From a bacterium (lineage in GTDB: Bacteria > UBA8248), in the NCBI GenBank assembly GCA_965203325.1, contig OZ241875.1:2848001-2912000 (forward strand): a DNA stretch of 64,000 nt. The letters are read 5' to 3'. Every line of letters starts with the position of its first letter. Positions within the stretch are counted from its first letter, which is position 1. Below are positions 36,216-38,473 of this stretch, in pieces. A program made the position numbers and the translations under genes. The notes under the pieces are model-generated. The model made no database searches. It had not been told where the DNA came from and was given only the letters and a program-made list of their open reading frames with translations.

Positions 36216-36653
36216 ATGCCGAAAGTCGATCATCTGGGCTACGCCGTGAGCAATCTCGATGAGAAGAAAAACGTGATGGAGGATTTGCTGGGCTTCCAGT
36301 TTCTGGAGAGAAGGGTGTATGAGCGGCCCGGCAACACCGCTCGCCTCGATTTCTACGAGGCCGAAGACGCGGTGATGGAACTCGTGGAGATGAGCGACCC
36401 CGAGGCACCGCTCAACCGGTTCATCGCCTCACGCGGCGAGGGACTGCACCATATCTGTTTCGTCGTCGATGACCTGAGGGCCACGATGGCCGAATGGGAG
36501 GCGAAGGGAGTCGAGTTCGTCCTCGCCCCCACCTACGGCTCGCGCGGCGGGGTCATCACCTTCACGAACGCGGCGACCACGGGCGGCCTCGCGGTGGAAC
36601 TGGTGCAGTACGTCCCCGAAGGAGAGGAGGTTCCTGACTGGGCGCAGAAGTAA
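36216..36653 (+). CDS. Methylmalonyl-CoA epimerase-like VOC protein
   Basis: VDHLGYAV, MELVE, RGEGLHHICFVVDD and GGLAVELVQ. Confidence 0.85.
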   Translation: MPKVDHLGYAVSNLDEKKNVMEDLLGFQFLERRVYERPGNTARLDFYEAEDAVMELVEMSDPEAPLNRFIASRGEGLHHICFVVDDLRATMAEWEAKGVEFVLAPTYGSRGGVITFTNAATTGGLAVELVQYVPEGEEVPDWAQK

Positions 36654-36838
36654 GGAAGCGCCATTCGCATAACCCGCACCACGCGCCCGGCTTGCCTGCA
36701 AGTAGAGAAAAGACGTGCTCGCGGTGCGGGTATGCGGCCTGCCGGGGGAGAAGGGATTATATGTACCTTCTTATACTTTGGATGACGCGGGGTTGATGAA
36801 AGAATTCGCCAAGTCCGAACGAAAGCCTCATTTTTCGC

Positions 36839-36867
36839 TTGACAAGCAAGGTCCAATCCCCCACTAT
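36839..36867 (+). promoter_or_regulatory. Sigma-70-like promoter in front of the candidate ncRNA
   Basis: Perfect TTGACA, 17-nt spacer, CACTAT; predicted +1 near 36874-36875, where the first helix starts. Confidence 0.55.
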
Positions 36868-36874
36868 TTCACCC

Positions 36875-37404
36875 GGCATACAATCCACGTGTGGTCGATC
36901 TCACGGGCTGCCCGCTGAATACAAGACGACTCTTCCTGAGAGTTGAAATAGGCGGGAACCCACATTTCTTCCAAAACGTGGATTGTATGCCAACCAGCCC
37001 GTATTTCATCCGTGGGTTCGGGTGAATCAATCCGCGTGTGGATTGGGAAGGATTGTATGGGTCGAGCTAGTTCATGATGAACATACCTATCTAAACCATA
37101 TAAAGGCGGCTTTTTCAGGAAACTGATGACAGGGATGCACTATAGCGAAAAATGACTGGTTGGTCAAATAGGGAAGCCGGTTGCCGCGTCGTAGGTGAAG
37201 AAGCGGTGCCGGTTTCTAGCGGCGGCCGGAAAGGGCGATGGGGCGGGTTTCAAAAGCGCCTCCGGAGCTCAGGCAAGAAGATGAAGAATTTGGGGGTTAC
37301 TCATTAGCTGCTTGACCTCGTGGAGTAGCGAGTACCGTTCCGGGTTCGAGTTGGGTCCTCAGACCCGCAACGGGAATAATGAGTAACCCCCTCCTTCTTT
37401 CATC
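36875..37404 (+). ncRNA. Candidate large structured non-coding RNA of unassigned family (may extend to about 37477)
   Basis: No credible ORF; perfect helices 36875-36890/36976-36991 and 37292-37306/37377-37391; crossing pairings; GAAA tetraloop; AGUA/GAA loop-E motif; G-U pairs favour the plus strand. Confidence 0.65.
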
Positions 37405-37631
37405 GATGCGTACTCGAAAGCAGATTCCAATACGAGCGACTTTCGCGCCGGCTCCCCGGGTCGGGGGCGAGCATCCCCATTATAGTCTCATCTTGTCGCC
37501 GATTGCGAGTTTTTTCCCGAACGCGGGTTTCGCTCCTCGGCGCCGGCCGCTTCCGGGGTACACGGCGAGGGGCCTGTTTTCGGTTTTCGTGCGGCCCGCC
37601 GAGGGGGGAGGGCTGCATTCCGAGAGGGTGC

Positions 37632-37640
37632 TGGTATAAT
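37632..37640 (+). promoter_or_regulatory. Extended -10 element (TGGTATAAT) upstream of the DUF5678-like gene
   Basis: TGnTATAAT about 65 nt before ATG 37707. Confidence 0.5.
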
Positions 37641-37706
37641 GAATTTTGCTCTCTTCCGTGTTTTTGGCTAACCGGCTGAATTCGCGATTTGTTCGGGAGG
37701 CTCGCC

Positions 37707-37952
37707 ATGGAAAATGGATTGAACGATGAATTTGAATACTATTTGGAAAACCAGCTCGATCTCACCGAGAAGTATGAAGGCAGATATATCGTAATCAAAA
37801 ATCGCAATGTGATCGGAGACTACGATACCAAGAGAGCTGCAATCGAAATGACGATGAAAATGCATATGTTGGGCACTTTTCTGGTGCAGAAATGTAGCAG
37901 TGACCCCAACAGCATAAAAAAAAGGTTTCTGTCGCGGGCCTATTTTTCGTAA
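37707..37952 (+). CDS. Small DUF5678-like protein (81 aa)
   Basis: GGAGG RBS; EFEYYLENQLDLTEKYEGRYIVIKNRNVIGDY...GTFLVQKC; AT-rich. Confidence 0.75.
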   Translation: MENGLNDEFEYYLENQLDLTEKYEGRYIVIKNRNVIGDYDTKRAAIEMTMKMHMLGTFLVQKCSSDPNSIKKRFLSRAYFS

Positions 37953-38415
37953 TGTTCAAAAAGAAAAGTTCTGCTTTCACGACATATTGCCGAGGATATG
38001 AAAACGTCCTTTCCAATCTGGTCGAGGTCGCGCCTGCTTATGACCCCGAGTTAGGTTTCTCCAGGTCTTTTTCAGGAAATACAGAGCGGTTTCGGATACA
38101 GGCGCCACGCACAGCGCGATAACGTCGCAAGTGGTTCGGGATTTCGCCTTGCGAGCTACTGGCATGGCCGTCGTTTATGACGCCACCACTACGCAAAATG
38201 TCCATACGTATTCAGTCAATATCTTATTACCCAACCATGTTGAGTTTTCCGATTGGGAAGTGACCGAGGCGGGTGGACTTGTTGGCGATGAAGACATCCT
38301 GATTGGTATGGATATTATCGGGGCCGGTGATTTCGCGGTTAGCAATAAAGAACGAACGGTATTCACCTTTCGCTATCCTTCACAAGAAGAGATCAGTTTT
38401 TCCAAGCAAGGCTAA
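37952..38415 (+). pseudogene. Retropepsin-like (clan AA) aspartyl protease split by a -1 frameshift
   Basis: ATG 37952 is coupled to the upstream TAA; its frame reads MFKKKSSAFTTYC...APAYDP and then stops early. DTGAT and DILIGMDIIGAGDFAVSN lie in the -1 frame, open from 38044. Confidence 0.8.
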
Positions 38416-38473
38416 GCTCCCACGCATTCTACCGGGAACATGGCGCAATGATTCAATGGGCCCCTCTCCCGCG

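Follow-up and report, generated by a model that had tools for sequence, protein, structure and literature searches.

The locus considered here lies in a 64,000-nt stretch of DNA (the window; positions 2,848,001 to 2,912,000 of the forward strand of contig OZ241875.1, GenBank assembly GCA_965203325.1) from a bacterium of the GTDB lineage UBA8248. At window positions 36654-37706 a gap of about 1 kb separates an open reading frame (ORF) of the glyoxalase family (36216-36653; Pfam) from a small ORF starting at 37707. In this gap a promoter is followed, on the plus strand, by two structured RNA elements, here termed H1 (36872-37004) and H2 (37284-37399). Both are members of multi-copy families, neither of which is recognized by Rfam at its gathering score. 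An initial annotation of the sequence had proposed a single ornate non-coding RNA of 530-600 nt at this place; the comparisons reported here point instead to the leader and the trailer of a surface lipoprotein gene that has probably been lost from between them.

No ORF within the gap is longer than 107 amino acids (aa), and a Pfam search with six of the short ones returned nothing at E ≤ 1, in agreement with the initial annotation, which had seen no credible gene here. The small ORFs were rejected as genes on these grounds and on that of position, since those starting "MSNP.." begin inside the conserved 3′ arm of H2. Rfam assigns no family to the gap region at gathering score; at E ≤ 10 (36600-37750) it gives three weak matches, all at chance level and none over the long helices. 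ARAGORN found neither tRNA nor transfer-messenger RNA (tmRNA) in the region, and the earlier judgement that no tmRNA and, at the thresholds of Rfam, no standard RNA family is present therefore stands. The plus strand of 36870-37520 folds with a z-score of -4.55 and the minus strand with one of -6.58 (20 shuffles each); as both fold better than shuffles, energy alone gives no strand.

When 40 relatives were searched at the DNA level, 18 of the 22 that belong to the genus had a match, and the other 18, which are more distant, had none. In 16 of the genus genomes the matching sequence occupies the syntenic place immediately 3′ of the glyoxalase gene, and pieces of the window were placed as blocks on these 16 loci. 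The glyoxalase gene stands upstream in 19 loci, with gap lengths from 416 to about 2000 nt; the 416-nt gap is that of a seventeenth genome (G009, L022), which has only the first 48-70 nt of H1.

The promoter (36839-36867) is of the sigma-70 type and comprises a -35 box TTGACA (36839-36844), a 17-nt spacer and a -10 box CACTAT (36862-36867), as had been read by eye. It was missed by a consensus scanner because CACTAT fits TATAAT at only three of six positions. The -35 box is present in all 16 syntenic loci at a conserved distance from the first helix, and TTGACA also stands at a fixed distance before that helix in most paralogous copies of H1, the spacers of which have otherwise diverged. The transcript would start at about 36874.

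H1 is a structured leader RNA of about 133 nt, scored at 138.6 bits by a covariance model (R1) built from an alignment of 43 distinct H1 copies of the genus. Its fold comprises four helices: an outer helix P1 (14 bp in the family), a CCCGC/GCGGG helix, a variable hairpin and a 7-bp helix, CGGGCUG:CAGCCCG, which crosses P1. In the window the 5′ arm of P1 (36875-36890) and its 3′ arm (36976-36991), the latter containing the nearly invariant GUGGAUUGU, are complementary at 16 of 16 positions and correspond to the perfect first helix of the initial annotation. The crossing helix, a pseudoknot or closing helix, pairs 36904-36910 with 36995-37001, and a conserved internal-loop core is formed by GAAUACAAGAC ... 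GAAAUAGGCGGGAACCC. As modelled, P1 and the crossing helix could either coexist as a pseudoknot or form alternately.

The covariation among homologs that would be expected of a conserved RNA structure is present in both elements. Across the 43 copies of H1, 93.7% of the cells are paired, compared with 28-42% when the partners are slid by one to three columns, and changes on both sides occur at 15 of 33 pairs. Neither the paired fraction nor the covariation score was reached by any of 500 shuffles; these overstate significance because the copies are related, and the slid controls are the fairer comparison. Between paralogues, P1 exchanges GC for CG, CG for GC and UA for CG at alignment columns 5/157, 6/156 and 8/154, and in the crossing helix (94.4% of cells paired) a U-A pair is swapped for C-G in five sequences. 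Many H1 pairs switch between G-U and G-C or A-U, which agrees with the plus strand deduced in the initial annotation from its G-U pairs.

H2 is a three-way-junction element (core 37289-37394; 123.8 bits with its own model, R2). Its stem, 37284-37306/37377-37399, spans 23 nt at 87% complementarity around a perfect 15-bp core, as the second helix and its extension had been described. The 14-bp stem is invariant in the syntenic group; in the whole H2 family three stem pairs show exchanges of A-U with G-C or of U-A with C-G, and covariation extends to the inner helix. After removal of seven reverse-strand rows, 139 of 1230 cells are G-U and eight A-C or C-A, so that the structure belongs to an RNA of the sense strand. 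Rfam gave nothing on the H2 copies, save a chance-level match to c-di-GMP-I-GGC elsewhere in one locus (L127; 22.9 bits, E 0.2).

All 16 syntenic loci contain the promoter, H1, the next 56 nt and H2, and these are the only parts always kept. The blocks between the 56 nt and H2 are found in 7, 8, 2 and 5 of the loci and those after H2 in 3, 5 and 9. The middle between the kept parts ranges from about 130 to about 1000 nt and the distance from H1 to the last H2 from about 280 nt to about 1.4 kb, with two or three tandem H2 copies in several genomes. What the middle once contained is indicated by one relative, G005 (locus L019), in which H1 (L019 1533-1665) is followed by a 5′ untranslated region (UTR) of about 310 nt, an intact ORF (1976-2731) and H2 (2736-2843). 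The ORF starts ...MSCIFFMVVSQAVMVAGCGGG, with the lipobox AGCGGG, and ends ...GAGFEGAFGAHKRK*; two more units of gene end plus H2 come after the first H2. Its product gives Pfam scores below the cut-offs for FHBP_C (22.2 bits, cut-off 28.1) and TbpB_B_D (18.7 bits, cut-off 26), and the lost gene may accordingly have encoded an fHbp/TbpB-like surface lipoprotein. In G003 (L020) the lipoprotein gene is frameshifted and split into two frames, four loci (L015, L016, L018, L023) have a short fusion of signal-peptide region and C-terminus, and 14 syntenic genomes have neither an intact nor a frameshifted ORF between H1 and H2.

In the window, 37237-37284 appears to be the remnant of this lipoprotein gene, namely its last 15 codons, DGAGFKSASGAQARR, and the stop TGA (37282-37284). 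By tblastn with the intact G005 protein, nine of the 15 residues are identical to the C-terminus DGAGFEGAFGAHKRK (E 0.27). The remnant stop lies 7 nt before the run of five Gs that opens H2. Seven of the 28 H2 copies examined have this spacing, those of G005 and G003 among them. In G005 the stretch matching 37005-37170 stands before the start codon of the intact lipoprotein gene.

These comparisons bear on the proposal of a new class of large non-coding RNA, functional as one molecule from 36875 to about 37516, with H1 and H2 as domains and the middle as a variable linker. In its favor are a single conserved promoter and the lack of a convincing terminator between H1 and H2; the two elements occur together in 16 of 16 syntenic genomes, 14 of them without an ORF between, H1 is under purifying selection in those 14, and the region folds better than shuffles. 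However, the middle is unconserved, with blocks in 2-8 of 16 loci and a length that varies several-fold, and it holds recognizable pieces of a protein-coding gene. H1 as a leader and H2 as a trailer occur independently elsewhere, and no conserved long-range pairing between the halves is seen, the 10- and 12-nt complementarities involving DNA 5′ of the promoter. With ROOL, GOLLD, OLE, HEARO and raiA, the first four of which had been suggested as likely kin, the region shares the length of the non-coding stretch, many predicted helices and a promoter of its own; but no covariance model of these or of any other large RNA family in Rfam matches (36600-37750, E ≤ 10), the middle is a decayed gene and the whole is not conserved as a unit. 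A single large RNA is for these reasons quite unlikely.

As a family, H1 extends well beyond this locus; partial copies elsewhere in the genome were already apparent from DNA similarity. In this genome R1 gives 15 matches; 20 of the 22 genus genomes have matches, 1-16 in each, and so do three of 14 other Nitrospinota genera sampled. Full-length matches were also found in four metagenome-assembled genomes (MAGs) of the Acidobacteriota, titled Terriglobia, Vicinamibacterales, Acidobacteriota and Candidatus Marinacidobacterales. The 21 H1-like matches of a 2.4-Mb Gammaproteobacteria MAG (G061) are spread over 20 contigs; none of the Nitrospinota genomes searched has so high a density. The total exceeds 150 matches among about 55 genomes searched, in three phyla. 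A pattern scan of genome contigs gave 70 stretches, of which those outside Nitrospinota, Acidobacteriota and the one Gammaproteobacteria MAG had no R1 match and were set aside as chance.

The genes 3′ of H1 encode mostly exported proteins. Three copies in this genome are followed, at 35-170 nt, by a gene with a signal peptide or lipobox; one of these genes, the paralogue 3′ of copy c1446, passes the Pfam threshold for TbpB_B_D (31.6 bits). One copy, together with a degenerate tandem partner, precedes the gene of a 664-aa lipoprotein, another precedes a sugar-transferase gene, and a degenerate copy precedes a histidine-kinase gene. At 40 further H1 loci, drawn from nine genomes, the next ORF usually begins within 25-70 nt and has a signal peptide or lipobox. 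By a crude, uniform rule, a signal-peptide-like ORF starts within 250 nt after H1 at 41 of 78 copies (30 by strict rules), compared with 332 of 1500 random positions (145 by strict rules). Of five copies looked at in Acidobacteriota and Gammaproteobacteria, three have a signal peptide downstream, and one more precedes a membrane protein. Tandem arrays of three or four H1 copies within 1.5 kb occur in L042 (G007:C1:1847450-1850583) and L043 (G010:C1:3729615-3731734); in L042 a lipoprotein ORF starts 35 nt after the last copy.

A separate set of eight H1-like copies lacks the 5′ arm (G000:C1, near 703452, 1031211, 1263759, 1997727, 2587912, 3373200, 3871174 and 4229208; e.g., L124:2892-4111). 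A gene for a 236-239-aa HTH_17 protein stands about 390 nt away from each copy, in divergent orientation; this gene heads a repeated unit of about 2 kb and is adjoined by a large repeat-rich ORF of more than 680 aa. As six near-identical copies end such a unit, H1 was considered as the guide or bridge RNA of an insertion sequence, but what the unit carries on the other strand is the HTH_17 gene and a large ORF for a surface protein, without any transposase.

The closest known family to H1 is sRNA-Xcc1 (RF02221), to which it is distantly related, below threshold. The H1 of the window itself has no RF02221 match at E ≤ 10. However, the three best RF02221 matches of this genome are H1 copies (29.2, 27.6 and 21.1 bits), Acidobacteriota copies match at 28-30 bits, and the 21 matches in the Gammaproteobacteria MAG, which reach 35 bits, mostly coincide in position with R1 matches. 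Over five other genomes the maximum is 35 bits; the gathering score of 53 is reached by none of these. This kinship lessens the novelty that the initial annotation had made dependent on the outcome of an Rfam scan, and does not remove it. In cmscan alignments of the Acidobacteriota copies, the outer helix of Xcc1 corresponds to the crossing helix CGGGCUG:CAGCCCG of H1, and both RNAs have a hairpin with the internal loop AAUACAA.A/GAAUA, the motifs of which are invariant or nearly so in the 43-copy alignment. Both are also multi-copy and patchily distributed. By contrast, H1 is about 45 nt longer, with an added 5′ arm that makes a 14-16-bp helix; an insertion replaces the second Xcc1 hairpin, and the outer helix becomes a pseudoknot. 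The genes 3′ of H1 are mostly those of exported proteins rather than symE, and no integron context is apparent around nine annotated H1 loci, where no search aimed at an integrase was made.

In Xanthomonas campestris sRNA-Xcc1 is an RNA of 88 nt, verified by Northern blot, whose targets are predictions only (PMC2996969). Later work locates it 5′ of symE in an integron cassette, the most widespread one of Xanthomonas (bioRxiv 10.1101/2025.06.18.660453), and counts seven homologues in Xylella, five of them clustered in tandem (PMC12189769). The literature found, including that on symE and integrons, contains no treatment of sRNA-Xcc1 as a cis-regulatory leader or riboswitch, nor did a search turn up anything relevant on riboswitches in Nitrospinota. 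H1 might itself be an independent trans-acting small RNA (sRNA) gene of this kind, its position before exported-protein genes reflecting shared regulation or read-through and H2 being an unrelated 3′ element. This agrees with the identity of the best RF02221 matches here and in the Gammaproteobacteria MAG, with the Northern-verified RNA of X. campestris (PMC2996969), with the retention of H1 after loss of the downstream gene, and with a terminator-like hairpin and U run after H1 in one paralogue group (copy c1457). On the other hand, most copies have no terminator between H1 and an ORF 25-70 nt downstream, which makes H1 part of that mRNA, and the 3′ strand of the closing helix overlaps hairpins that resemble expression platforms. 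The reported position of sRNA-Xcc1 upstream of symE (bioRxiv 10.1101/2025.06.18.660453) would fit a leader as well. An independent sRNA gene is therefore considered unlikely.

The overlap just mentioned brings H1 close to riboswitch leaders. In 61 of 77 H1 copies the 3′ strand of the crossing helix joins a local downstream hairpin (minimum-free-energy fold of the 62 nt from that strand), and one of the Gammaproteobacteria copies has a downstream partner that is a repeat of the 5′ strand (CGGGCUGG), with UUUGUG behind it. Like riboswitches, H1 is promoter-proximal in 5′ UTRs, combines covarying stems with highly conserved junction nucleotides, occurs in many copies per genome before functionally related genes, sometimes in tandem (L042), and has a key helix that shares its 3′ strand with a downstream hairpin. 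Unlike them, it is followed by a gene set that points to no ligand, few of its platforms are recognizable terminators, and it survives loss of its gene; none of the riboswitch families in Rfam matches it. Tentatively, H1 and sRNA-Xcc1 might form an unrecognized riboswitch class, in which a ligand-sensing leader would choose between pseudoknot and downstream hairpin and control exported or surface proteins in Nitrospinota, Acidobacteriota and Gammaproteobacteria. "sRNA-Xcc1" would then be a terminated symE leader and not a classical trans-acting sRNA, although this wider proposal is more doubtful than not.

H2 is tied to a narrower set of genes and organisms. In this genome R2 detects 12 loci. 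Of the 22 genus genomes, 16 have matches, 3-17 in each; a single match lies in another Nitrospinota genus, and the five non-Nitrospinota genomes that carry H1 have none. Eleven of the 12 loci start 7-114 nt after the stop of an ORF of 286-1068 aa, the exception being that in the window. The 11 ORFs end in ...GRMVGAFGAxKQ* or ...AGAFGARxxD* (GAFGA-type), and 10 of them begin with a near-identical lipoprotein signal peptide, ..YAFALAAVFALTLAGCGGGGG. The loci L118, L127 and L180-L188 of this genome (G000) encode ten or more large lipoproteins of 603-1068 aa, a family united by almost the same signal peptide, ..YAFALAAVFALTLAGCGGGGG, and by the GAFGA-type C-terminus; those tested have no Pfam match. 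The 30-40 nt on either side of H2 are also repeated between copies, which would fit gene conversion. The 3′ flank of H2 is UCCUUCUUUC at this locus and AGCCAG or ACU/GUU in other copies. The order H1, ORF, H2 recurs at a second locus of this genome (c3273, L118). In that group only about 300 nt separate the two elements in G003 and G005, and other genomes have 2-6 kb in this place; the gene between H1 and H2 is thus variable there too.

Two other identities for H2 were rejected. Sites of the attC type have R″/R′ boxes (RYYYAAC ... GTTRRRY), an unpaired central spacer and extrahelical bases. The arms of H2, GGGGGUUACUCAUU/AAUGAGUAACCCCC, form an uninterrupted 14-bp stem and fit the boxes only at GTTA/TAAC, in reverse order. 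An intrinsic terminator would be a compact, G+C-rich hairpin with a U tract directly behind it; H2 was not called by the terminator scan, its stem encloses about 78 nt, and its 3′ flanks are those given above. Closer analogies are offered by surface-protein gene families with conserved 3′ flanks and by hairpins of the repetitive extragenic palindromic (REP) type, which stabilise mRNAs when 3′. Like these, H2 lies just after the stops of paralogous lipoprotein genes and recurs in tandem with gene-end remnants. It differs in being a three-way junction of 106-112 nt with conserved loops and covarying stems, no simple palindrome, and in being limited to one genus with one match elsewhere.

The copy numbers raise the question of whether H1 and H2 are mobile DNA repeats beside genes, such as miniature inverted-repeat transposable elements (MITEs) or REP-like palindromes, whose structure matters in DNA and not in RNA. 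The initial annotation had regarded many genome-wide copies with target-site duplications as the sign of a MITE. The number is indeed high (15 H1 matches, 12 H2 loci), H1 is patchy across phyla, and the tandem arrangement of H2 with gene-end remnants suggests recombination. However, the stems covary between copies, unlike conserved terminal repeats, and G-U pairs are frequent on one strand only, as counted above for H2. The promoter keeps a fixed distance before H1, orthologous positions are occupied across species, and no target-site duplication is visible at the H2 flanks inspected. Being covarying, strand-specific and fixed relative to genes, the copies are not MITEs, and the mobile-repeat explanation is very improbable.

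Further evidence comes from the identity between the window and each of the 16 syntenic loci. H1 is 93-100% identical, H2 83-100% and the 56 nt after H1 77-98%. For comparison, the glyoxalase gene is 95-99% identical at first and second codon positions and 72-94% at third positions, and the DNA from the glyoxalase stop to the promoter 21-98%. H1 is thus as conserved as first and second codon positions, also in the 14 genomes without the ORF. A leader without its gene should drift, and as H1 has not, it must serve a purpose here for which the gene is dispensable. The chief argument for a surviving non-coding transcript and a trans-acting role lies in this.

On balance, the locus appears to be the relic transcription unit of a surface lipoprotein, made up of promoter, riboswitch-like H1 leader, last 15 codons with stop, and H2 trailer, and this is held to be probable. 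The structured 5′ leader would consist of H1 and a further 170 nt or so, the gene behind it having been deleted here. H1 would act in cis as a switch of the riboswitch type, in which binding of a ligand or factor decides between the crossing helix and the downstream hairpin. H2 belongs to the sense strand and to the 3′ UTRs of a single family of lipoprotein genes, where it may protect or mark the mRNA 3′ end or be released as a stable RNA. Although the gene is gone, H1 is kept by selection, and a transcript of about 640 nt from H1 to H2 probably persists as a non-coding RNA that acts in trans, as has been reported for sRNA-Xcc1, the distant relative of H1.

Several points weigh against this interpretation. 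The start site, the 3′ end and a continuous RNA from H1 to H2 are all inferred from sequence, and the -10 box is weak. The homology of the gene remnant is short (15 residues) and, at E 0.27, not significant alone; it draws on position and synteny. The signal-peptide enrichment is overstated because many of the H1 copies are orthologues and not independent, and its control consists of random genome positions, gene starts being the stricter choice. The figure of 61 of 77 for the downstream hairpin is a raw count without a shuffled control. Intrinsic terminators after H1 are rare, a crude rule flagging five copies of which two, with a U tract (L139, L088), are convincing. The eight near-identical H1-like copies without 5′ arm and promoter are divergent from an HTH_17 gene and do not precede an exported-protein gene. 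Lastly, the undecayed state of H1 after gene loss means that a cis-acting switch cannot be the whole story at this locus.

The remaining parts of the gap are for the most part less conserved. The continuation of the leader (37005-37170) has its first 56 nt in 16 of 16 syntenic loci and the following blocks in seven and eight; it includes a second GGAUUGUAUG motif (37050-37059) and a hairpin or palindrome, UGACUGGUUGGUCA, at about 37153-37166. RNAalifold gives -40.1 and -42.9 kcal/mol for its two strands, which is indecisive as to strand and structure. The sequence GGATTGTATG occurs twice, at 36980-36989 in the 3′ arm of P1 and, 70 nt downstream, at 37050-37059. The second copy, which is conserved in the genus, could instead pair with the 5′ arm of P1; no compensating changes were seen. 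The small hairpins of the initial annotation are present, including tcag-GAAA-ctga at 37115-37126, but a by-eye alignment shows the latter to be kept in the closest species and broken in others, and it was not retained as a conserved structure. On the minus strand, 37167-37139 contains a promoter-like TTGACC-17-TATAGT that matches at 10 of 12 positions and from which an antisense transcript might start; its TTGACC is half of a small conserved palindrome or hairpin of the leader (UGACC..GGUCA), and the site was set aside.

Between the leader and the gene remnant, a variable hairpin region (37171-37236; gaagccggt/gccggtttc) is found in two of 16 syntenic loci, being deleted in L007 and expanded in L008 and L009; Rfam gives it a weak, non-significant match to M23 (20.5 bits, E 0.42). 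The trailing region with its gatgc/gcatc hairpins (37400-37520) has blocks in three and five of the 16 loci, a weak isrK-like match (13.6 bits, E 4.4) and, at about 37497-37516, a weak terminator-like site (4-bp stem and six Us) that the terminator scan did not call. The spacer before the small ORF (37521-37706; block in nine of 16 loci) may be what is left of the 5′ part of another lipoprotein gene in tandem, a possibility raised by a weak tblastn match to the 5′ region of the G005 protein at 37564-37704 (E 0.024). The DNA at 37600-38420 is low in GC (0.44-0.50, compared with about 0.60 for the genome) and includes two ORFs, one of 81 aa that weakly matches DUF5678 (20.1 bits, under the cut-off) and one of 94 aa without a Pfam match, a pair found in only part of the syntenic genomes. 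At the other end of the gap, directly 3′ of the glyoxalase stop, an inverted repeat of 22 nt with 82% complementarity (36672-36731) may be the terminator of the glyoxalase gene; the terminator scan did not call it.

The profile of H1, with covariation, a fixed promoter distance and exported-protein genes downstream, fits an orphan riboswitch or a protein-binding leader. It also gives a new frame in which to read sRNA-Xcc1. H2 is a structured 3′ UTR element tied to a large family of surface lipoproteins; to our knowledge, bacterial elements of this sort linked to one gene family have rarely been described. For scans of non-coding DNA, the locus serves as a caution that an ORF-free, structured gap with a promoter can be two UTRs joined by a deletion. 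Leader and trailer can outlive the gene between them, and at the second locus the frame of H1 and H2 encloses 0.3 to about 6 kb in relatives. This pattern points to a rapid turnover of surface-protein genes inside conserved RNA-coding frames.

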